NCBI GenBank assembly: GCA_046989265.1 | Contig: JBKWUD010000004.1 | Location: forward strand, 780 to 64,779 | From: Eubacterium sp. | GTDB lineage: Bacteria; Bacillota; Clostridia; Oscillospirales; Acutalibacteraceae | Reading direction: 5' to 3' | Length of the DNA: 64,000 bases | Shown here: in pieces, positions 52,495 through 64,000 of the stretch | Position numbering within the stretch: the first letter of the stretch is position 1 | Layout of the letters: each line of letters starts with the position of its first letter | The notes under the pieces: generated by a model | Database searches by the model: none | The model's input: the letters and a program-made list of their open reading frames with translations, nothing else | Told to the model about the DNA's origin: nothing | Translations under genes and position numbers: made by a program

Positions 52495-52573
52495 TCAGTA
52501 ATTAAAATAGTATTAAAATTACTATTTCAACTGAATATTGCATTAAAGAAATTATATGAAAGGAGATGACTCA

Positions 52574-53410
52574 ATGTCAGATAATTGGGTAGTACAACAC
52601 CTTGAAAATGCACTTGACACTTGGAATGAAAAGCTCGCTGAAATATGGACTTTGCTTACACAATCACCGCAAGATTTTAAAGGCGGCGGTATATGGAATG
52701 TAATCGTCAATATTAACGGTGCTATTCAGGCAATCGGTCTTGCCCTTCTTGTCCTTTTCTTTGTAATAGGAATGGTAAAGACCTGTTCGTCATTTGTCGA
52801 GGTTAAAAAGCCTGAACACGCTTTAAAACTGTTTGTGCGTTTTGCTATTGCAAAAGCATTGGTAACTTATGGTATGGAGCTTATGCTTGCTCTGTTTGAA
52901 ATCGTACAAGGCGTTATTTCAACGATAATGGACAGTTCAGGACTTGGCTCTAATTCAGATATGACCTTACCTGATGAAATGGTATCGGCTATTGAAAATT
53001 GTGGCTTTTTTGAGAGTATTCCGTTATGGGCAGTAACCTTGATAGGCAGTCTGTTTGTAACGGTTTTATCATTTATATTGATACTAACCGTGTATGGAAG
53101 ATTTTTTAAGTTATATATGTTCACTGCACTTGCACCGATACCGTTATCAACCTTTGCAGGCGAGCCTACGCAGAATGTAGGCAGGTCATTTATAAAAGCA
53201 TATTGCGGTGTATTGCTTGAGGGTGCAGTAATTATACTTGCTTGTATAATTTTCTCTCTTTACGTATCATCACCGCCCGAAGTTGATACAAATGCAGCCG
53301 CCGTAACAATGGTATGGAAGTACATCGGCGAGCTTGTATTTAATATGCTTGTTCTTGTTGGAACAGTAAAAATGTCAGACCGCATCGTTCATGAAATGAT
53401 GGGTATGTAA
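52574..53410 (+). CDS. VirB6-like conjugation membrane protein
   Basis: Multi-TM; YGRFFKLYM.TALAPIPLSTFAGE. Confidence 0.85.
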   Translation: MSDNWVVQHLENALDTWNEKLAEIWTLLTQSPQDFKGGGIWNVIVNINGAIQAIGLALLVLFFVIGMVKTCSSFVEVKKPEHALKLFVRFAIAKALVTYGMELMLALFEIVQGVISTIMDSSGLGSNSDMTLPDEMVSAIENCGFFESIPLWAVTLIGSLFVTVLSFILILTVYGRFFKLYMFTALAPIPLSTFAGEPTQNVGRSFIKAYCGVLLEGAVIILACIIFSLYVSSPPEVDTNAAAVTMVWKYIGELVFNMLVLVGTVKMSDRIVHEMMGM

Positions 53411-53628
53411 TGATTCGACATATCAAGATAAAAAATATATTCAATAAATCTATATAAAAGTATAAGTAAAAGCAGATGAAATAGGAATGATAAAAGATGT
53501 TTTGCTGTTTTAGTTAGATTATATAGGATTCTATTTATCCATTCACTCAACTTGAAATCTGAATATTCGTTGTTTTTAGAAATGGATTCTTCAATTAATT
53601 TCAATAATGATAACAAAAAATCAAGCAT
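53389..53628 (-). CDS. Small hypothetical membrane protein
   Basis: GGAGGT RBS; hydrophobic C-terminal half; AT-rich. Confidence 0.45.
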   Translation of the reverse strand: MLDFLLSLLKLIEESISKNNEYSDFKLSEWINRILYNLTKTAKHLLSFLFHLLLLILLYRFIEYIFYLDMSNHYIPIIS

Positions 53629-53745
53629 ATATAATACCTCCGATTTTATATAAAATATCTTACAGTATTAATATATGCTTGACCCATAATTTTATTTCCT
53701 AAACTAATTAAAAAATAAAATTATTTTTATTTAAAAAATGCCTGA

Positions 53746-53967
53746 CTAATCATTCTCTTCATTTTCTATATACCAAATTTCATTAACAGTTTTATTCAAT
53801 TTATTTGATATTTTTAATGAAATTTCAAGAGAAGGAAAGGTAACAGCATTTTCATAGCGTAAATATTGCTGTTCAGCAATTCCTATGGTTTTTGCAAATT
53901 CTCTTTTGTTTTGCATGTATTCTTGCATTCTTATACTTTTTAAATTGTTTTTTATCATTATAATCAC
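53746..53967 (-). CDS. XRE-family HTH regulator
   Basis: NNLKSIR, EFAKTIGI, YLRYEN...PSLE...KI...L...VNEIW. Confidence 0.8.
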   Translation of the reverse strand: MIIMIKNNLKSIRMQEYMQNKREFAKTIGIAEQQYLRYENAVTFPSLEISLKISNKLNKTVNEIWYIENEEND

Positions 53968-54059
53968 CCATTTTAAACTTCAAACAGAATTATAACATTA
54001 ACCCGTGAATGTTATTGTCGAAATCAAAAATTAAAATATAATTTTAAGGAGGGACTATT

Positions 54060-54431
54060 TTGGATATTCAAATAAATAAAGAATTTCGTGATTACAGCGA
54101 AAAAATATATTTTGGGCTGAATATGCGTCAGCTCATTTTTTCTGCCCTTGCAGTCGGGGCAGCAGTCGGCTCATACTTTCTGCTCAAACCGTATTTGAGC
54201 TTGGAAACATTATCGTGGCTCTGTATTATTCTTGCTGCTCCCTTTGCTGCACTCGGCTTTGTAACATATAACGGAATGACAGCCGAGCAGTTTGTGTGGG
54301 CATTTATCAAATCAGAATTTTTAACACCTAAAAGGCTTGTATTTAAGGCTGAAAGCGATTTGTGCAAGCAAAGTAAGGAACTAATCAAACAAAAGGAAAA
54401 GGAGATTTACAAGGCAAATGAAAACGCTTAA
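54060..54431 (+). CDS. prgI: PrgI-family protein
   Basis: DY.EKIYFGLNMRQL, two TM helices, YNGMTAEQF. Confidence 0.85.
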   Translation: MDIQINKEFRDYSEKIYFGLNMRQLIFSALAVGAAVGSYFLLKPYLSLETLSWLCIILAAPFAALGFVTYNGMTAEQFVWAFIKSEFLTPKRLVFKAESDLCKQSKELIKQKEKEIYKANENA

Positions 54432-56748
54432 ACAAATGATAAAAAGAGAACAGGAAAAATTTGTGATACCTAAATCCGTTCAGGATGTTATACCTATCAA
54501 AGCCGTCTATAAAGACGGCATTTTTCTTTTGAATAATAACAACTATTCAAAAACATTCAAGTTCTCTGATATTAACTATCACATTGCAAGTGATGAGGAA
54601 AAGAAGGAACTTATGCAGGGGTATTGGTCTGTTATCAATTCCTTTGGTGCAGGCGTTACAATTAAGCTCACTATCAACAATCACAGGCTTGACAAAGCAG
54701 AATTTGAAAAGTCAATCCTTATTCCGTACAGATATGATGGTCTTGATAAATACCGTAAGGAATATAACGAAATGCTCCTTGATAAAGCAAATTCATCAAA
54801 CTGTATTGTTCAGGATAAATATTTTACTGTTACCGTCAATAAGAAAACAGTTGATGATGCAAGAGCATTTTTTAACCGTATCGGTAATGACTTGTCGGCA
54901 AGGCTTTCAAGAATAGGCAGTAAATGTGTGCCTTTGACTGCTGATGATAAGCTGAGAATATTCCACAATTTCTATCGTGACGGAAATGAGCAGAACTATA
55001 ATCTTGATTATGAGCAGCTTATGAATAACGGCTGTGATATTCGTGACTATATCTGTCCTGATTCAATGGACTTTGAAAGTGATTGTATGAAAATCAACGA
55101 CGAGTATTGCAGAGTGATTTTTTTACGAAACTACGGTACTTTTGTTGATGATAACACAGTATCGGATTTAACCTCTATCAACAGAAACCTTATGCTTTCT
55201 ATTGATTTCATACCGATACCCACGGGCGAAGCTACAAAAGAGGTTGACAAGGTGCTACTCGGTATTCAGACTGATAAGGCAAATTTCAATCGTAAGCAGG
55301 TACAGAACAATAACTACGGTGCTACAAATTACGATCTTGAACAGCGTGAGAGCGAAATTCTTGAAATCAAGAACGATATGCGTAACCGTGACCAAAGGAT
55401 ATATGAAACCTTAATTACAATGGTTATTACTGCCGATACAAAGCAGGAGCTTGATAATTTGACCGAAACTGTTTTTGCAAAGGTAGCAGACAGCAGTACA
55501 AATCAGTTTGCAACACTTCGTTATCAGCAGCTTGACGGACTGAATACAGTTTTGCCATTCGGTACAAGAAAGATTAACTGCTTCAGAACGCTTACAACAG
55601 AATCCCTTGCAGCGTTTATGCCTTTCAATGCACAGGAAATGCAGCATAAACACGGCACTTACTACGGACAAAATGCTATCAGCAACAATATGATTTTTAT
55701 AAATCGAAACAAACTGCTCAATGGTAACTGCATTGTACTCGGTGTATCAGGCGGCGGTAAATCATTCTTTGTTAAGGAGGATATTGCATCAATATTCCTG
55801 TCTGATGAAAATGCAGATATTTTGGTGATTGATCCTGAACGAGAGTACAATCCCATTGTTTCTGCATTGGGCGGCGAGGTTATCAACATTTCCGCCAATT
55901 CGGAAAATCATATCAATGCAATGGATATGAACGCAAACTATGAAGATGATAAAAACCCGATTGCAACAAAAGCAGAATTTATTATGTCGCTTTGTGAACA
56001 GCTTATCGGCGAAACTGTTGATGCTAAAGATAAATCAATCATTGACCGTTGTTGCAGAAATGTCTATGACGAATATATCAAGAGTGGGTACAAAATCGCA
56101 CCGCCTACCTTACAGGATTTCAGAGAGGAACTGTTAAGACAGAATGAGGTTGAGGCACAGGAGCTTGCACTTGCTATCGAACTGTTCTCTGATGGCTCAC
56201 TTGATACTTTTGCAAAGCCTACCAATGTTGATACAAATGACAGACTTGTTTGCTATGATATTCTTGATTTAGGCAGTCAGCTTTTGCCTGTGGGAATGCT
56301 TGTTGTTCTTGATAATATTCTCAACAGAATCACATCAAACAGAAGAAAAGGCAGAACAACCTATATCTTCATTGATGAAATTTACCTCTTGTTTGCACAG
56401 AAATATACTGCCGATTTTTTATACCGAGTATGGAAACGAGTAAGAAAGTACGGTGCTTTTGCAACAGGCATTACACAGAATGTCGGGGATATGCTCCAGA
56501 GCCATACGGCAAGCACCATGTTATCAAATTCGGAATTTGTTGTTATGCTGAATCAGAGCGGACAGGATAAGGAAAAACTTGCAAAGCTGCTTAACATCTC
56601 TGATAATCAAACAGATTTCTACACCAATGTTGACGCAGGTCACGGACTTATGAAAATAGGCTCAAGCCTTGTGCCTTATGTAAACAAATTCCCTAAAAAT
56701 ACGGAATTGTATAAACTTATGACAACTAAACCGGGAGAGGCAGTATAA
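54418..56748 (+). CDS. virB4: VirB4-like conjugation ATPase
   Basis: GVSGGGKS, IDPEREY, IFIDE, RKYG..TGITQN. Confidence 0.95.
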   Translation: MKTLKQMIKREQEKFVIPKSVQDVIPIKAVYKDGIFLLNNNNYSKTFKFSDINYHIASDEEKKELMQGYWSVINSFGAGVTIKLTINNHRLDKAEFEKSILIPYRYDGLDKYRKEYNEMLLDKANSSNCIVQDKYFTVTVNKKTVDDARAFFNRIGNDLSARLSRIGSKCVPLTADDKLRIFHNFYRDGNEQNYNLDYEQLMNNGCDIRDYICPDSMDFESDCMKINDEYCRVIFLRNYGTFVDDNTVSDLTSINRNLMLSIDFIPIPTGEATKEVDKVLLGIQTDKANFNRKQVQNNNYGATNYDLEQRESEILEIKNDMRNRDQRIYETLITMVITADTKQELDNLTETVFAKVADSSTNQFATLRYQQLDGLNTVLPFGTRKINCFRTLTTESLAAFMPFNAQEMQHKHGTYYGQNAISNNMIFINRNKLLNGNCIVLGVSGGGKSFFVKEDIASIFLSDENADILVIDPEREYNPIVSALGGEVINISANSENHINAMDMNANYEDDKNPIATKAEFIMSLCEQLIGETVDAKDKSIIDRCCRNVYDEYIKSGYKIAPPTLQDFREELLRQNEVEAQELALAIELFSDGSLDTFAKPTNVDTNDRLVCYDILDLGSQLLPVGMLVVLDNILNRITSNRRKGRTTYIFIDEIYLLFAQKYTADFLYRVWKRVRKYGAFATGITQNVGDMLQSHTASTMLSNSEFVVMLNQSGQDKEKLAKLLNISDNQTDFYTNVDAGHGLMKIGSSLVPYVNKFPKNTELYKLMTTKPGEAV

Positions 56749-56787
56749 CTGCCCTCACGGTTTTAGTTTATCGAAAGGAAAATCCAA

Positions 56788-57525
56788 ATGAAAAACAAAA
56801 TATGTATTGTTATGATTTTGGTGTTGACTGCGATTTTCGCAGTCAGCACCTATTTTCTTGTAACGGAAAGTGTGCAGGATAAAGAGCAAATGGATAAATT
56901 TGAGAGCATTGCGCAGGCCGTCGAGGACAGCGGGCAATGCTCTGATAACAAGTACGCTGATTTGTATGCACAAAATAATGATTTTATCGGTTGGATAAAA
57001 ATTGAGGATACTGTTATTGATTACCCTGTTATGCAGTCAAAGAACATTCCGAACTTTTATCTCAATCATAATTTCAACAAGGAATATTCTCGTTTTGGCG
57101 TTCCTTATATACAAGAGAACTGCTCTTTATCATCGGACAATATTATTGTCTATGGGCATAATATGAAAAATAAATCTATGTTCAATGAATTAACAAAATA
57201 CAAGAGCAAAGATTTTTACAATGCCCACAGAAACATTCAGTTCGATACTTTAACAGAACAGCGAACTTATGCGGTTGTCTGTGCCTTTAAGACAGTTGTT
57301 TATACAAGCAATGGCTTTGACTATTACAGCTTTGTCAATGCAAATACAGAGGAAGATTTTAGTGTCTACATTGAAAAATGCAAGGCACTTTCTTTTTATG
57401 ACACAGGAGTAAATACAGAGTACGGCGATAAGCTGATAACTCTATCTACTTGTGAATACTCACAGAACAATGGCAGATTTGTTGTTGTGGCAAAACAGGT
57501 TGGAGTGACAGCCTATGAAACCTAA
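56788..57525 (+). CDS. srtB: Class B sortase
   Basis: GWIKI....IDYPV, YGHNM, TLSTC...R. Confidence 0.9.
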   Translation: MKNKICIVMILVLTAIFAVSTYFLVTESVQDKEQMDKFESIAQAVEDSGQCSDNKYADLYAQNNDFIGWIKIEDTVIDYPVMQSKNIPNFYLNHNFNKEYSRFGVPYIQENCSLSSDNIIVYGHNMKNKSMFNELTKYKSKDFYNAHRNIQFDTLTEQRTYAVVCAFKTVVYTSNGFDYYSFVNANTEEDFSVYIEKCKALSFYDTGVNTEYGDKLITLSTCEYSQNNGRFVVVAKQVGVTAYET

Positions 57526-58285
57526 AAAGTATGTTGTATCTTTATCAGGCGGTAAGGATTCTACTGCTATGTTATTAAGATTGATTGAAGAAAAGTGCCC
57601 TATTGACTATATCATTTTCTGTGACACAGGTTTAGAGTTTCCGCAAATGTATGAACACATTGACAAGTTAGAGAAATATATCGGCAGACCGATTATCAGA
57701 CTCAAGCCCGAACACGATTTTGAATATTACTTTTTTATATATCATCCAAAACGCAAAAATCCTGAATTAGAAAAGTATGACGGAATGAGTTGGGGAGGTC
57801 CGAGAAATCGTTGGTGTACGGCTATGCTCAAAAAGCGAGTATTAGATGCTTATTTTAAGGACTTAAAGAAAGACTATGAAATTATTGAATATATCGGCAT
57901 TGCTGCCGATGAGCCGCACAGAGTTAAAGACGCTTGCTATCCTTTAGTTGAATGGAATATGACTGAAAAGGATTGCCTTGCATATTGCTATGAGCGAGGT
58001 TTTACTTGGAGCGGACTATATGAGATTTTTCATCGAGTATCCTGTTGGTGTTGTCCGTTACAAAGCCTTGATGAACTGAGAAAATTACGAAAGCATTTTC
58101 CTGAACTTTGGCAACAACTTGAATTTTGGGACAAAAATACTTGGCGAACATTTAAGCCCGGATACTCCGTTCAGGCTTTAAATGTTCGCTTTGATTTTGA
58201 GGAGGATTGGCAGACTCAAGGTAAGAGCATTCATAATAAGGAATTTTATACTGCATTAAAAAATATTTTGAAGGAGGTATCATAA
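57515..58285 (+). CDS. PAPS-reductase-family (PP-loop, Fe-S) protein
   Basis: SLSGGKDS, DTGLEFP, RWCT..LK, RVSCWCCP. Confidence 0.85.
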   Translation: MKPKKYVVSLSGGKDSTAMLLRLIEEKCPIDYIIFCDTGLEFPQMYEHIDKLEKYIGRPIIRLKPEHDFEYYFFIYHPKRKNPELEKYDGMSWGGPRNRWCTAMLKKRVLDAYFKDLKKDYEIIEYIGIAADEPHRVKDACYPLVEWNMTEKDCLAYCYERGFTWSGLYEIFHRVSCWCCPLQSLDELRKLRKHFPELWQQLEFWDKNTWRTFKPGYSVQALNVRFDFEEDWQTQGKSIHNKEFYTALKNILKEVS

Positions 58286-60015
58286 TGGCTAAAACCGATA
58301 TTAAAACAAAGGCAAAGCAGACAATCAAGACTATTGAAACTGTCGGCATTATTACTGAAAAGGTAAAGGATGCAGGCATAAAAACTAAAGATGATATTGG
58401 TAAGGCTATAAATACAAATGCTGATACTCCTGAACAATATGCCGCTCAGAGATTTCAGGATACAGCACATTCGGCAACGACAGATGCAACCTATTATTTT
58501 AATAAGGAAGGTAAAAAAAGTGTTGCCCAAACGAAAAAGAATATTGAAGATGCAAAGGTTACTCTTGAGGATATAAAGGCACGCAGAGCAGAAAGAAAGG
58601 CTAAAGCCAAATCAGTAGAACAGACGAATCATACTGTTATCAAGACTGCTGAAAATGAAACTAAAAAGCAAGCTGAACAGGCAGTTAAAAATGCTCCTAA
58701 AACTGCAAGTAATGATATTCGTATGGGTAATAATTCTGCACCCAAAAACAAAGGCAAGACAATCAAGACTGCTAACGATACATTCTCTAAAGGTGTTAAG
58801 ACTGTGAATGTACCACAGAATAATGTTGCAGTTAATCGTCTTTCGGTAAGCAAAAATGCAGAGAGAGCAAGAAAAACAGCACAGTATATGAAAGAAACTG
58901 CAAAAGAGGCTGCTAAACTTGCAAAGAATGCTTTTAAGGTATTCATTAAGGCAATCAAGGGTGCGATTAAAGCTGCTAAAAGCCTTGTATCTGCCATAAT
59001 TGCAGGCGGTTGGATTTCTGTTATTGTTATTATTGTATTGTGCCTTGTAGGTGCTGTGGCAGCGTCATTTTACGGTATATTCTTTTCAACTGAAACATCT
59101 GATAGCGGTATGAATATATCAACAGTTATTCAGGAAATCAATGCTGACTATGACAATAAGATTGATGAACTCAAATCTTCAGGAAGTTATGACAGCGTTG
59201 AGATTAGCGGTAACAAAGCGAATTGGAAAGATATTTTATCAATCTATGCTGTTAAGGTTACTACTGATCCTGATAACCCTATGGAGATTGCAACGGTTGA
59301 TGTTAACAAAAAATCTATACTATCCAATATCTTTTGGGATATGAACAGTATTGATTCTAAGGTTGAAACGAAAACTGAAACAAAGGAAACTACCACCACC
59401 GATGAATATGGCAATGAGGTTATTACCACTGATGAAATATCAGTAAAGGTTTTGACTATTTCAATCAGTAGCAAAACTGCTGATGAAATGGCAGAAACTT
59501 ATTCTTTTAACGAAAAGCAAAAATCATATCTTGCAGAACTGATGAATGAGAGCAACGATAAGCTATGGTCATCAATCATATTTAATTCAGGTAGTGGCAC
59601 AGGCAGTATTGATATAGGCTCATTAGATTTCGGTGATGAAACAGTAAACGATACGCAGAGAAAAATCGTTGCAGTTGCCACTAATTCATCAAGTTATGGT
59701 ATTTCGGCAAAGTCAGGTTACTGTCAAGCGTGGGTAGCTGATGTGTACCAAGCTGTCACAGGCTCAAGAGGATCTGCTCACTGTGCTTTGTGTGCTGCTG
59801 ATATGTGGGCAGTTTCAACAGATTTTAGCAAGATACAAGTTGGTGCAACTGTATATGGCTATTCATCAAGCCAATACGGACATGTTGGTATCTATATCGG
59901 CAATGGTATGGTAGCACATAATATAGGCTATATTAAAATAGAGCCTATCGAGGATTGGATTAAAATATATAAAGGTTTTTGTTGGGGTTGGGAAAATAAT
60001 AAAAATCTTGTATAA
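58285..60015 (+). CDS. Conjugative cell-wall hydrolase (C-terminal NlpC/P60/CHAP domain)
   Basis: Lys/Ala-rich N-terminus, a TM helix, and GYCQAWV...GHVGIYIGNG..H. Confidence 0.8.
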   Translation: MAKTDIKTKAKQTIKTIETVGIITEKVKDAGIKTKDDIGKAINTNADTPEQYAAQRFQDTAHSATTDATYYFNKEGKKSVAQTKKNIEDAKVTLEDIKARRAERKAKAKSVEQTNHTVIKTAENETKKQAEQAVKNAPKTASNDIRMGNNSAPKNKGKTIKTANDTFSKGVKTVNVPQNNVAVNRLSVSKNAERARKTAQYMKETAKEAAKLAKNAFKVFIKAIKGAIKAAKSLVSAIIAGGWISVIVIIVLCLVGAVAASFYGIFFSTETSDSGMNISTVIQEINADYDNKIDELKSSGSYDSVEISGNKANWKDILSIYAVKVTTDPDNPMEIATVDVNKKSILSNIFWDMNSIDSKVETKTETKETTTTDEYGNEVITTDEISVKVLTISISSKTADEMAETYSFNEKQKSYLAELMNESNDKLWSSIIFNSGSGTGSIDIGSLDFGDETVNDTQRKIVAVATNSSSYGISAKSGYCQAWVADVYQAVTGSRGSAHCALCAADMWAVSTDFSKIQVGATVYGYSSSQYGHVGIYIGNGMVAHNIGYIKIEPIEDWIKIYKGFCWGWENNKNLV

Positions 60016-60017
60016 AA

Positions 60018-60045
60018 ATATGCCAGCCGATTTAGGCTGGCATAT
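60018..60045. terminator. Hairpin between the tra operon and the convergent surface-protein operon
   Basis: atatgccagcc-gattta-ggctggcatat. Confidence 0.7.
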
Positions 60046-60276: not shown

Positions 60277-61374
60277 TTATTTCCAAGAAACATACAGTTC
60301 ATATAACGAGCCTGCACTTGTTGAAAAGAATTTAGCAATAATGTTCTGTTCATAATCTGATATTAATCCATCATCATTTAAATCATAGCAATAATTTTCA
60401 TCAGCATCTGAACCAATTGTATATTTAGTTAAGTAAGCATAATCCTTTCCGTTAACATATTCATCATTGATATAGTCAAATACAATTATTCCTATCGCAT
60501 TTGATTTAGAATTAATTTCATAATTTTTATATGGAATAATAAACGATGCATTTCTTGTTATAGCTGTTTTGCCATCTATAACAACATTTTGTCTGCTTCC
60601 CAAATCAACATCAAATTCAATTAATCCTTCTGAATCTGCATAGAAAGTACCATATTCATTTTCAAGATATCCTGTATGATATGGGATACCACCATTTGTC
60701 AAATCAACAGTGTCGTTATCTTTATTTAGCATAATTCCAACATAGCAATAAGCAGTTACAGTTTTATTTGTTGAAAAGTTAATTCTGTTTTCTTTTGCAT
60801 ATTCATATGCGTAATTGGATTTGGTATCTCCATAAAACATTACTTTTGAACACTTATTAAATGCATTAGGTCCTATAGCAGTTATAGAATCCGTATTTAA
60901 AAGGGTTCTTAGATTAACACATCCTGAAAATGCGTTTCTTCCAATAGTTATTTCATCAGAGGTCAGTTCAACAAATATTAACGATGAACAATTACTGAAA
61001 GATGTACTGTTAAGCAATTTTATACTATTAGGAAGGACTACATTTTCAATATTAGAATTTGAAAAGGAAACTGAATCAAGATAAATACAGTCCATTAAAT
61101 CAACTGTTCCGCTGACTTCCAAATTAGATAAAGATATAGATGATATATGTAATTTGCCATCTTCCATTTCATCCCATATAACTTCATATATAGATTCAGG
61201 TTCTTCAAAATTCCATTCTAAATAATCACAGTTATTACTGTAATTATAAATATTCTTAAGAGCCTGTATATCTTCTTCTGCATATATAGGTTCACTTGCA
61301 AAAGCACTGATATTTGTAAGTGATAAAACAATCAACAATGTGAGTAAAAAAGATGTTAACTTTTTAATTTTCAT
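60277..61374 (-). CDS. Secreted BspA-type LRR protein with a C-terminal dockerin/EF-hand-like pair
   Basis: Signal peptide (SAFA); IGRNAFSGC and IGPNAFNKC repeats; DYINDEYVNGKD and DLNDDGLISDYE. Confidence 0.75.
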   Translation of the reverse strand: MKIKKLTSFLLTLLIVLSLTNISAFASEPIYAEEDIQALKNIYNYSNNCDYLEWNFEEPESIYEVIWDEMEDGKLHISSISLSNLEVSGTVDLMDCIYLDSVSFSNSNIENVVLPNSIKLLNSTSFSNCSSLIFVELTSDEITIGRNAFSGCVNLRTLLNTDSITAIGPNAFNKCSKVMFYGDTKSNYAYEYAKENRINFSTNKTVTAYCYVGIMLNKDNDTVDLTNGGIPYHTGYLENEYGTFYADSEGLIEFDVDLGSRQNVVIDGKTAITRNASFIIPYKNYEINSKSNAIGIIVFDYINDEYVNGKDYAYLTKYTIGSDADENYCYDLNDDGLISDYEQNIIAKFFSTSAGSLYELYVSWK

Positions 61375-61438: not shown

Positions 61439-61897
61439 TTAAAATAATTCATTTGAGAATAATGAATCAGACATTTTGAATGCTGCACCCTCGACTTTGC
61501 TATTAGCGAATTGAAGATAATAGCAATCATCTTCTCCGACACAAATAGTTCCGAAAATATCTTCAGTACTGTCATTATATACCGCTATAACATCAGCAAA
61601 AACCATTTTCATTTTAACATCAGGAACAGTTGCTTTCTTTTCTGCATCTAACAATTCGGTTATATCATTTTCTTCAAAGTCAATATCCATTTTAAAACCA
61701 TTATAGTCAACATATAACTTTTCAATGTTTTTTTCTTCATCTGTATTAGAGCTTTCAGATATGTCTGAATTATCATCGGTTACAATTTCATTCTTATTTC
61801 GAGAGGATGCTTCTTTTGGTGAAGATGTATCATTACTACAGGAAACGAATGTAAATGAAATAATGACACACATAATAATTAATAATACTTTTTTCAA
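61439..61897 (-). CDS. Lipoprotein
   Basis: Signal peptide ending FVSC; acidic/Ser-rich linker. Confidence 0.75.
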   Translation of the reverse strand: MKKVLLIIMCVIISFTFVSCSNDTSSPKEASSRNKNEIVTDDNSDISESSNTDEEKNIEKLYVDYNGFKMDIDFEENDITELLDAEKKATVPDVKMKMVFADVIAVYNDSTEDIFGTICVGEDDCYYLQFANSKVEGAAFKMSDSLFSNELF

Positions 61898-61921: not shown

Positions 61922-62452
61922 TTAATACCACTTTGTAATCCAACCTTCTTTATCTGTTGCAGGCGGGATTTCTTTTTTTGTGGTAGCTTCCGTTGTGGTA
62001 GTTGTTGTTTGTTTTTGTGTAGTAGTTGTAGTAGTATTAGGTTTTTTCTCTGATGTTGTTTCTTCAGGCTCAAACTCAATATCATTGTCAGCATTAGAAC
62101 TATCATCTGTTGATGATTTTTCTGTTGCAGATTTAGTTGTGCTGCTTGTATTATTTGTTACACTATCAATTGGCAGAACAGTTGTATGCTCGTTAGTAAC
62201 ATATGTACCGCCTTTTTTAGTTACTGTTTTACCATTTGGTTGTGTTTCAATTTCAGCAAATACACCTTGATGTTTTTCTGTTGTTGATACGCTGCCTTTA
62301 TCGTCAGTAACAGGCTCATAATAATAAGTCGTTCCATTACTGTCCGTAACAGCGGTAGTTGAAACATTTTCACTACCGCTGTTTGCAGAACAGGAAACAA
62401 AAATGCTGACAATTATAACTATTACTGAAATAATAAGTAATTGCTTTTTCAT
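61922..62452 (-). CDS. Thr/Ser-rich lipoprotein ending in GWITKWY
   Basis: Signal peptide MKKQLL...FVSC; VTDxxG repeats; low-complexity linkers; aromatic C-terminal motif. Confidence 0.8.
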   Translation of the reverse strand: MKKQLLIISVIVIIVSIFVSCSANSGSENVSTTAVTDSNGTTYYYEPVTDDKGSVSTTEKHQGVFAEIETQPNGKTVTKKGGTYVTNEHTTVLPIDSVTNNTSSTTKSATEKSSTDDSSNADNDIEFEPEETTSEKKPNTTTTTTQKQTTTTTTEATTKKEIPPATDKEGWITKWY

Positions 62453-62454
62453 AA

Positions 62455-62568
62455 TTATGCCCATGGTACAGGGATGTCAGTATCAGGCTCATTATCGCTT
62501 GTTGTGATTACATCAATAGTTTTAAATTCCTCAATATCCATTTGCGGCTTTGAATATAACTCTTTCAT
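62455..62568 (-). CDS. 37-aa precursor-like peptide MKELYSKPQMDIEEFKTIDVITTSDNEPDTDIPVPWA
   Basis: AGGAGGTG RBS; the 24-aa N-terminal region aligns without gaps to the neighbouring peptide. Not in the ORF track. Confidence 0.85.
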   Translation of the reverse strand: MKELYSKPQMDIEEFKTIDVITTSDNEPDTDIPVPWA

Positions 62569-62584
62569 TTTTTCACCTCCTAAA

Positions 62585-62701
62585 TTAATACCATTTATCT
62601 ATCCAGCCAGATGGTGTAAGTCCTATACCACTGGTAGTTATGACATCGGTTGTTTCAAATTCTTTGACTTCAGTAATTGGTTTTAAGTAGGTTTCTTTCA
62701 T
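62585..62701 (-). CDS. 38-aa precursor-like peptide MKETYLKPITEVKEFETTDVITTSGIGLTPSGWIDKWY
   Basis: Starts 2 nt after the LRR gene stop; GAAAGGG RBS; paralogous leader. Not in the ORF track. Confidence 0.85.
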   Translation of the reverse strand: MKETYLKPITEVKEFETTDVITTSGIGLTPSGWIDKWY

Positions 62702-62703
62702 TA

Positions 62704-63999
62704 TTAAGCTGCCCTTTCTAATAAATTCTTCACTTCGTCTTTTGTTTTCTGATCTATCGCATCGTCAGCAATGATTTTTTCTGCAACAAATTGGAAACTT
62801 CTTGTTACAACAGGAGAATAGAAATACATTCCGTCTATGCAGACATAGGCTCTTGCTGATATATCATTATAAATATAGTTACCGTGGATTCCTGTAAATA
62901 CAGCATTGTAGGTTGATACTGAACCATCAACATTTCTTTTAGCAGCAGATTTCACATATACCTTGCGGTTGTTTTCTCTTAAATAATCATTAATATCGTA
63001 CTTATTTGTATCTATCGATTCAAATGTATAAACAAAACCATAATCAATATTTTCAGCGTATTTTTTGAAATCAAAATCAATGGTATTTTCATCAAATGAA
63101 AATCCAAAACGCAAACCGTTATCTCGTGTGCGTATTTGTCCGCCTTTGCTTTGAGCGATTTTGTCACTGTTGATATGAGTATATGCATTTGCATAGCCAT
63201 TTCCGTCGGCAATGGCAAGTCCCGGTGTATAGAGAGGACTTATGAAGGTACATTTATAAGCAGAATAATCTTTTGGAAAGGATACATTCATAAGTCTGTC
63301 ACTGCAATATACGGATGCATTACTTGGAATAGCCGTACTGAAACTTTCTGCCATAGGTGCAAAAATCATTTTTAAATTGGTGCAGCCTTCAAAGAATGCA
63401 CCTAATTCTGTTGCTTTTGGAACATAAAGATTCTCAAGATTTTTACAGTTATAAAAAGCCTTGCTGCCGATAGTAGTTACATTGTTCAAAACAATATCCT
63501 GTGCAGCACATCCGTCAAAAGCATTTGCACCTGCTTTTGTACAGTTCGGAAGCTTTATGTTTTTGAAATATGTTCCTGCGAGTCCATTATCAGCAATTGT
63601 TTGAAGTTCGGAAAGTTCTAAATCCTGATTCAGTAATTCACAACCGAATAGAGCCTCACTGCTGATATATCTTACCTTTGATAAATCAATATCAGCGAGT
63701 TTACTACAGCCATAGAAACAGCGTTCATTTAAATTCTCGATACCATTTGCAGTTACTGATTTCAGATTTGTATTACTGAAAGCGTCATCACCGATGGTTG
63801 TAATTGTATCAGGTAAAATGATACTTTCAATATTGCTGTTGTTGAATACTTGCGGACCGATTTGTGCTGGCACAATTCCGTTTACTACGTCAGGAACAAC
63901 CACATCCATTTCATTACCGAGATATGCTTTTATAATGCCATCTCTGTCAATTACAAATTCGCTTTCATCTTCTTGTAAGATGTAATAATCAAGATAAGT
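62704..63999 (-). CDS. BspA-type LRR surface protein with a C-terminal beta-rich domain; 5' end outside the window
   Basis: The frame is open to the window edge; many IG..AF..C repeats; the C-domain reads GGQIR...GLRFGF...YG...YNAV...ARAY. Confidence 0.85.
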   Translation of the reverse strand, partial: TYLDYYILQEDESEFVIDRDGIIKAYLGNEMDVVVPDVVNGIVPAQIGPQVFNNSNIESIILPDTITTIGDDAFSNTNLKSVTANGIENLNERCFYGCSKLADIDLSKVRYISSEALFGCELLNQDLELSELQTIADNGLAGTYFKNIKLPNCTKAGANAFDGCAAQDIVLNNVTTIGSKAFYNCKNLENLYVPKATELGAFFEGCTNLKMIFAPMAESFSTAIPSNASVYCSDRLMNVSFPKDYSAYKCTFISPLYTPGLAIADGNGYANAYTHINSDKIAQSKGGQIRTRDNGLRFGFSFDENTIDFDFKKYAENIDYGFVYTFESIDTNKYDINDYLRENNRKVYVKSAAKRNVDGSVSTYNAVFTGIHGNYIYNDISARAYVCIDGMYFYSPVVTRSFQFVAEKIIADDAIDQKTKDEVKNLLERAA

Positions 64000-64000
64000 A

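Follow-up and report, generated by a model that had tools for sequence, protein, structure and literature searches.

Short linear tags shared by a tether lipoprotein and RiPP-like peptides are predicted to dock an Ig-like cargo domain at a Eubacterium locus

We analysed a window of 64,000 nucleotides from the genome of a Eubacterium sp. (G000), in which the ORF list gives the following order on the minus strand: a cargo gene, two small peptide genes, a tether lipoprotein gene, a second lipoprotein gene, and a gene for a secreted leucine-rich repeat (LRR) protein. The 3' part of the cargo gene occupies 62704..64000, and its reading frame extends past the window end to G000:C4:66290. Peptide 1 (62585..62701, 38 aa) consists of a YxxP..DVITTS leader and a core that ends in GWIDKWY (62588-62608), hereafter tag A. 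Peptide 2 (62455..62568, 37 aa) has the same kind of leader and a core containing a second motif, DTDIPVPW (62461-62484), hereafter tag B. Purine-rich, Shine-Dalgarno-like stretches precede both small genes. The tether lipoprotein (61922..62464) likely starts at its second Met (62452) and has its lipobox Cys at residue 25. From N- to C-terminus, it comprises a conserved N-terminal block, a linker, a copy of tag B (ADNDIEF, residues 125-131, 62072..62092), another linker, and a copy of tag A (GWITKWY, 61925..61945) at its free C-terminus. Both copies are marked out by conservation, of D, N, and F in tag B and among homologues in tag A, and by contacts in the co-fold model described below.

Next comes the second lipoprotein (61439..61897, 152 aa), which has a small folded domain with weak YhfM/DUF5301 look-alikes only. 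It recurs in this position in relatives, lying directly after the tether at many loci, including L008, L009, L041, L077, L089, and L100. The secreted LRR protein (60277..61374, Pfam LRR_5) has a dockerin-like end, with a Dockerin_1 match below the cut-off (E 0.098), and is the last gene before a terminator-like hairpin (60018-60045). A promoter scan at the locus stayed at chance level. On the plus strand, genes that by eye resemble those of a conjugative element (52556-60015), including a VirB4-like ATPase, a sortase B-like protein, and a wall hydrolase-like protein, run head-on to the operon and end at the hairpin. In the region outside the window (G000:C4:66296-74945), the gene directly upstream of the cargo gene encodes a 1709-aa protein whose end is RHS-like; before it come, as judged by eye, genes for a sensor kinase and a LytTR-type regulator as well as an AgrB-like gene.

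The cargo gene had first been read, from the sequence alone, as encoding an LRR protein. LRRs are present, but the full product is a 935-aa secreted S8 protease-LRR protein, composed of a signal peptide, an S8 protease domain (PF00082), a CHB_HEX_C/Fn3_assoc domain (PF13290), BspA-type LRRs (PF13306), and a C-terminal docking domain (CTD; residues 781-935, 155 aa, 62707..63171). AlphaFold2 models the CTD as a complete FN3/Ig-like beta-sandwich followed by two C-terminal helices (pLDDT 83.7), and because the sandwich is full, we rejected the idea of a pilin-like domain missing a strand. Fold searches with Foldseek and VIA-align returned generic Ig, FN3, and CBM matches (best Z 8.7, rmsd 2.8, 102 aligned), and since none stood out, we took no function from them. 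The CTD has no NCBIfam family, no PDB sequence relative, and no Pfam match on this stretch, and the ESM Atlas gave only unnamed Bacillota clusters for it.

The window genome has nine peptide genes of this family. With that genome excluded, a profile search detected the family in 86 of the 100 genus genomes, 44 of the 300 order genomes, and 52 of the 399 class genomes sampled. The leader of ~23 residues (YxxP..D[VI][IVL]TxS) is shared, and the cores are variable. Y5 and P8 were invariant in 29 aligned peptides, the seed pattern having allowed Y/F and P/A/V. Among 182 profile matches, the Thr at the leader end was found in 171 and the Ser in 177, the remaining Ser positions being gaps and the profile itself having been seeded on Ser-bearing peptides. 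The spacing of these two residues is TxS rather than TxxS, shifted by about one residue in a few peptides. Peptides 1 and 2 had no Pfam or NCBIfam match, and PDB sequence searches with the peptide profile and with the RRE yielded nothing significant.

Members of the family usually sit behind a secreted cargo gene. At 174 of 189 distinct loci, the peptide gene lies ≤150 bases behind a gene of ≥140 codons, and among upstream genes of the five main clusters, 70 are complete, of which 66 have a signal-like start. The C-terminal ends of these upstream proteins form a few weakly related clusters, and the type of peptide core tracks the cluster. In a Pfam scan of 55 cargo proteins, we found S8 proteases, LRRs, InlB-like domains, and Ig repeats; no SLH, dockerin, cell-wall-binding, or sortase family was found among these 55 (for one of them, among the best five of six matches). 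Elsewhere in the window genome (G000:C21:9805-15085, locus L003), two CTDs of a different subtype stand in tandem at the C-terminus of a 1547-aa beta-helix protein, whose gene is followed by a peptide gene and then by a lipoprotein gene with a matching tail. Some peptide genes in the window genome are placed differently. An orphan pair (G000:C34:2196-2466, L002), of tag A then tag B type as in the window, lies among housekeeping genes, without cargo or tether; two further peptide genes (G000:C30:1255-1362 and C2:87625-87762) have no upstream CTD cargo, and the latter lies just before the gene for a 1859-aa secreted protein. At the other extreme, class genomes including G565, G450, and G668 hold 14-16 peptide genes with longer, partly helical-looking cores, and the genes viewed there lie mostly behind a cargo gene with a helix-less CTD.

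The peptides look like precursors of the linear polyphosphorylated peptide (LPP) class, with an RRE-type leader and a dedicated set of maturation and export proteins. The window genome encodes an RRE protein (PqqD), an HprK-like kinase, an S26-like peptidase, a nucleotidyltransferase, and an ABC exporter, dispersed and in trans: none of its nine peptide genes lies beside the machinery, unlike in some relatives. One of its three nucleotidyltransferase genes (on C20) lies among polysaccharide genes, and one of its two PqqD genes (G000:C8:29989-39696) has in its vicinity genes for a large lipoprotein and for two secreted proteins whose ends are dockerin-like. In relatives, all five machinery genes occur in cis at L403 and L404 and four at L110, L402, L406, and L407, while cargo, peptide, and machinery share one operon at L110, L402, L404, L406, and L407. 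At L110, cargo, peptide, a kinase-like gene, PqqD, S26-like peptidase, and NTP_transf_5 genes follow one another, and a single run at L406 holds cargo, peptide, an SLH tether with a matching tail, kinase, PqqD, peptidase, and exporter. Among class genomes, the S26-like peptidase was present in 46 of 52 with a peptide vs. 75 of 346 without one. In the genus, where we compared 14 of the 86 peptide-positive genomes with all 14 peptide-negative ones, the figures were 14 of 14 vs. 2 of 14. In the nine class genomes with a peptide gene within ~3 kb of the peptidase, the linked genes were the kinase (9/9), PqqD (6/9), the exporter (4/9), and the nucleotidyltransferase (3/9), with a CTD cargo gene upstream in six.

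The closest relatives of these peptides are the LPP peptides (lppAKBSDN of Paenibacillus alginolyticus), defined by the same five machinery genes (Popov et al. 2026, PMC13381572). According to that paper, Ser3 is polyphosphorylated, the leader is cleaved after Thr in an RRE-dependent manner, cores carry one to four phosphates, clusters lie in capsule loci, and the nucleotidyltransferase gave no detectable product, which leaves the final structure unknown; the biological role is stated to be unknown as well. The words "lipoprotein," "clostridi," "S-layer," and "secreted" do not occur in its main text, and the supplement, as far as consulted, lists clostridial peptidase-RRE pairs in clusters 4, 9, and 20 of its sequence similarity network (SSN), as opposed to SSN cluster 1 for LPP peptidases, with the RRE classed as "others" rather than in the LPP clade and no precursor. 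Like the LPP peptides described there, the peptides here have a YxxP leader with conserved Thr and Ser at its end, a stand-alone RRE, an HprK-like kinase, a signal-peptidase-like leader protease, an ABC exporter, and an NTP_transf_5 protein, with no cyclase. By contrast, the leader consensus given there is YxxPxVLxHQxIxFETxxS, whereas ours is YxxPx6FxTxD[VI][IVL]TxS, and the precursor genes here lie scattered downstream of cargo genes, the machinery being encoded in trans in the window genome. In 142 distinct precursors, D[VI][IVL]TxS is present and the LxHQ and FET blocks are absent; because the full LPP leader consensus is not found, we place the peptides on a sister branch of LPP rather than among its members. 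The leader may be cut directly before Ser or after V-I-T with Ser at +2, and both options fit the sequences.

The lasso peptides paeninodin and pseudomycoidin offer a second comparison, as described in PMC8498205. They share an RRE-type leader and Ser phosphorylation followed by nucleotidyltransferase modification, which in pseudomycoidin adds a hexose to phospho-Ser; this is a precedent for the attachment step that we propose below. Unlike in those peptides, no cyclase gene lies beside the peptides here, and the conserved Ser is located at the core's beginning rather than at the C-terminus. We rejected a lasso peptide reading because there is no precursor-linked macrolactam cyclase; no cyclase was seen in the cis operons of relatives, and the single Asn_synthase match in the window genome is a ~610-aa gene with unrelated neighbours.

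We then compared the peptides with the tether. The likeness of their ends, pointed out in the sequence-only reading, holds: TPSGWIDKWY in peptide 1 and DKEGWITKWY in the lipoprotein share six of the final seven residues. Their tail codons have three synonymous differences (Gly, Ile, and Lys), so the match is not a fresh DNA copy. In a count that includes related genomes, which are not independent, 40 of 101 genus genomes encode GW[IV]x[KR]WY-stop, at 59 places in all, and the reversed control pattern occurs at none, which rules out chance. Moreover, 112 of the 120 lipoprotein homologues listed retain the tail, and the other eight mostly look truncated or frameshifted. The tail match is real and selected. 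On viewing all 59 motif-ending genes, we found 50 tether-like proteins, six peptides, and three partial genes; the lipoprotein, not the peptide, is therefore the common carrier of tag A. The core type of peptide 1 also occurs in the orphan pair on C34 and at L013, L029, L041, L043, and L224. The further expectation that peptide cores would co-vary with neighbouring lipoprotein tails from locus to locus failed for tag A: only 5 of the 26 distinct GWIxKWY tethers located behind peptides have a tag A peptide next to them, so the GWIxKWY peptide does not copy its neighbour from one locus to the next.

The second resemblance that had been noted, between PDTDIP of peptide 2 and the internal ADNDIEF of the lipoprotein, is poor in the window copy but clear in relatives, for example at L043 (DDNDVPF vs. 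DDNDIPF). An internal D[NT]x[IV]x[FW] is retained in 23 of the 26 GWIxKWY tethers, and its D, N, and F are invariant in 33 aligned fragments, which were picked by that motif. When tethers were compared with their own peptides, the fine-scale co-variation of tag B was mixed. The description of the lipoprotein as mostly a flexible tether suits the linkers around the tags but not the N-terminal block (~residues 33-100), which is conserved in most homologues, so the protein is not merely a flexible linker.

Tags of other types occur on other anchors. We ranked the tails of eight tether candidates outside the GWIxKWY class against 127-208 peptide cores, and the neighbouring peptide ranked first or second in five, although such co-variation between neighbours can arise from co-inheritance, and kin are not independent. 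The five were a lipoprotein at L003 (DLPF vs. peptide DTPF, tied first of 127), L108 (LPDDVW vs. LPDAEW, second of 127), and three SLH proteins: L161 (EGDNGTGWG, identical to its peptide with four synonymous differences, first of 127), L406 (GDNFVDIDEIW vs. GDNDVNIEDIW, first of 208), and L133 (first of 208). The neighbouring peptide ranked poorly for L400 (126 of 208), L247 (37 of 187), and L308 (31 of 208), the last of which lacks an aromatic tail. The tails of L400 (ELPFVPFD) and L247 (GAIWLPEV) resemble the cores of other family members and not those of their own neighbouring peptides. At L187, both tags lie behind an FN3 domain. Three unrelated anchor modules (lipobox, SLH, and FN3 proteins) therefore carry the same tags. 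Outside the genus, tethers are rare in the genomes sampled. Solitary two-tag tether lipoproteins, encoded after unrelated genes, occur at L183, L184, L204, L209, L217, and L225, and these must therefore act in trans.

The proposed partner of the tags, the GLRF..ARAY C-terminal domain of the upstream protein, is favoured by co-folding, by natural fusions, and by co-occurrence among genomes. We co-folded the CTD with lipoprotein residues 123-180, rather than with the peptides, supplying an alignment of our own for each chain and running three controls. The fragment with GWITKWY gave ipSAE values of 0.75, 0.75, and 0.72 vs. 0.03 for the best control, with at least 90% of contacts agreeing between runs and a partner pLDDT of at least 61. 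Of 157 solved complexes, 116 reach this mark, as against 2 of 215 mismatched pairs; with our own alignments, these figures apply only approximately. In the model, tag B contacts CTD residues 76-80 and 87-95, and tag A contacts residues 9-16 and the end helices (124-147). Contacts are limited to the two tags and adjoining residues, and most of the linker is not involved. Each tag is thus predicted to bind a site of its own, and, judging from the strand order, the tags appear to extend two edges of one CTD sheet. The interface columns of the CTD are more conserved than the others (0.65 vs. 0.49).

Support for tag B as a CTD ligand that is independent of co-folding comes from eight natural fusions, in which a CTD without end helices continues in frame into DNDIx[FY]. 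AlphaFold2 folds this cis tag as a strand (residues 140-144, pTM 0.83). Seven of the fusion CTDs, when aligned, are 60-69% identical to the window CTD. Six of the fusions have a dockerin-like segment at their end, and the other two seem to be frameshifted ahead of it; in five that were scanned, Dockerin_1 gave E-values from 5e-5 to 0.012, one of them over the cut-off. None of the eight loci has an adjacent peptide or tether. The fusions do not form one clade on the CTD tree, but with five changes against a shuffled mean of 6.5, we claim neither a single nor a multiple origin. They would also fit a plain fold-completing role of tag B.

Tags and CTDs also travel together, in counts in which kin genomes are not independent. 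In the genus, the CTD subtype is present in 35 of 39 genomes with GWIxKWY vs. 8 of the 61 others, so that 8 of 43 CTD-positive genomes have no GWIxKWY gene. A GWIxKWY-type tether occurs at 23 of 33 loci with helix-bearing CTDs vs. 0 of 27 with helix-less ones, and a tag-B-like core follows 33 of 33 vs. 0 of 27, a pattern derived from the same data. Starting instead from the CTD, we surveyed 79 genus loci and found a peptide and a tether at 26, a peptide only at 27 (three of them identified by eye), a tether only at 9, a cis tag at 8, no adjacent partner at 8, and a contig edge at 1. The peptide-only, tether-only, and cis-tag-plus-dockerin layouts fit anchors that are interchangeable.

From the sequences, the gene layout, tag conservation, co-variation, cis fusions, and co-occurrence of the machinery can be taken as established, and they lead us to propose that CTD cargo is anchored at the surface by tethers or, alternatively, by matured peptides, which we consider somewhat more probable than the other readings combined. 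First, the cargo would be exported by Sec, ending in its Ig-like CTD. Second, the CTD would bind short linear tags; the subtype here would have two sites, a tag B site accepting D-N/T-D-I-x-F/W and a tag A site accepting GWIxKWY. Third, a tether, here a lipoprotein and elsewhere an SLH or FN3 protein, would display the tags on a flexible linker and so retain the cargo on the cell. We are confident in these three steps, and by analogy with known pathways, we judge the fourth, a RiPP-like maturation and export, equally probable. In it, the PqqD/RRE protein would bind the YxxP leader, the HprK-like kinase would phosphorylate the conserved Ser, the S26-like peptidase would cut the leader off just before this Ser, and the ABC exporter would secrete the core. 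In a fifth step, the nucleotidyltransferase would most likely join the phospho-Ser to an envelope polymer or lipid, and the linked core would then be a minimal tether, interchangeable with the lipoprotein. This attachment is something we infer, and the case for and against it is evenly balanced. Several counts weigh against the proposal as a whole: tag A peptides are rare (6 of 59 motif genes), three of the eight other tether candidates do not resemble the peptide beside them, eight CTD loci lack an adjacent partner, and in 75 peptidase-positive class genomes no peptide was detected. At the window locus, the two peptides would match the two predicted CTD sites, and the lipoprotein would span both.

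The earlier suggestion of soluble peptides acting purely as decoys or release signals fits poorly, because 27 of the 79 CTD loci have a peptide but no adjacent tether; still, tethers can act in trans. In a broader form, the tether alone would anchor the cargo, and the matured peptides would be soluble, either completing or stabilising the CTD fold or competing with the tether and so releasing the cargo. The peptides have no membrane segment, the chemistry of attachment is only inferred, and cis tag B works as an extra strand in the eight fusions. Tethers also lie away from CTD genes (L183, L184, L204, L209, and L225), so a competitor in trans is possible. Yet 27 CTD loci have a peptide only, and 8 of 43 CTD-positive genomes lack a GWIxKWY gene; tethers are rare outside the genus in the genomes sampled, while the 55 scanned cargo proteins lack other anchors; a dockerin-like end has been acquired by most cis-tag proteins, which would be expected were a peptide the usual source of the anchor; and a free strand would need neither kinase nor nucleotidyltransferase. 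We regard soluble peptides as unlikely, though the most serious alternative to anchoring peptides.

Less likely again, phosphorylated cores could bind CTD cargo into an extracellular matrix (a capsule, biofilm, or metal-bridged network) with no covalent link to the cell, the tethers serving as nucleation points. The one to four phosphates on LPP cores and the capsule loci of their clusters, as given in PMC13381572, would suit such a matrix, as would the nucleotidyltransferase gene among polysaccharide genes on C20 and the genomes with 14-16 peptide genes. However, about one peptide gene per cargo gene, with the core type tracking the CTD subtype, is better explained by a dedicated adaptor. More doubtful still is a role of the peptide as a signal or a small natural product, with the CTD as its capture domain and the lipoprotein as a resting-state mimic. 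A RiPP-like pathway exporting a small peptide and the orphan peptide genes on C30 and C34 could be read this way, but the CTD is found on secreted proteases and on LRR, Ig-repeat, and beta-helix proteins rather than on sensors, and the fusions carry the tag in cis. Finally, a one-off duplication or chance origin of the tail match, which could draw only on the scarcity of matching neighbours (5 of 26), has practically no probability given synonymous differences in a conserved protein, 59 motif genes against no control match, and independent tag types on SLH tethers.

How anchoring by tethers and matured peptides relates to familiar mechanisms can be seen by comparison. Gram-positive bacteria retain proteins at the surface through sortase motifs, SLH domains, wall-binding repeats, lipidation, and cohesin-dockerin pairs. 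In the last of these, as in cellulosome-type scaffoldins, a C-terminal cargo module binds a partner on an SLH- or lipid-anchored flexible linker. The present system is alike in having a C-terminal module on varied secreted cargo and a cell-held partner on a flexible linker. By contrast, the cargo module here is an FN3/Ig-like sandwich, with no Dockerin match on the cargo; the anchor side is a linear tag of 7-10 residues, with no cohesin Pfam match on the lipoprotein, whose conserved parts include two short tags within low-complexity sequence; and a RiPP can serve as a second source of the tag. In donor-strand complementation in pili, a short peptide adds a strand to the Ig-like domain of another chain, and the predicted docking is similar in kind. 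Unlike in pili, the CTD model is already complete, the tags appear to be added at its edges, and no polymer subunits were seen. In the literature searched, which takes in few subscription papers and no bioRxiv supplements, neither the CTD nor the tags nor the tethers were found described.

If the peptides are not anchors, the tether-CTD pair would still be undescribed, and the peptides would be a variant of the LPP kind. The small and apparently subtype-specific tag-domain pairs are candidates for surface display. The system also opens to experiment what LPP-type peptides do and what their nucleotidyltransferase acts on, both left unknown in PMC13381572. On our preferred reading, a RiPP pathway would serve as a protein-anchoring system, in which a leader-cleaved, Ser-phosphorylated, envelope-linked peptide captures secreted cargo through an Ig-like domain, with lipoproteins and SLH proteins as alternative anchors, a proposal we find about as easy to believe as to doubt. 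If true, it would add a route of surface retention in gut Clostridia, built on short tags and an unnamed CTD carried by many proteases, LRR proteins, and Ig-repeat proteins, that would be widespread in uncultured members of this group and would give LPP-type peptides their first function.
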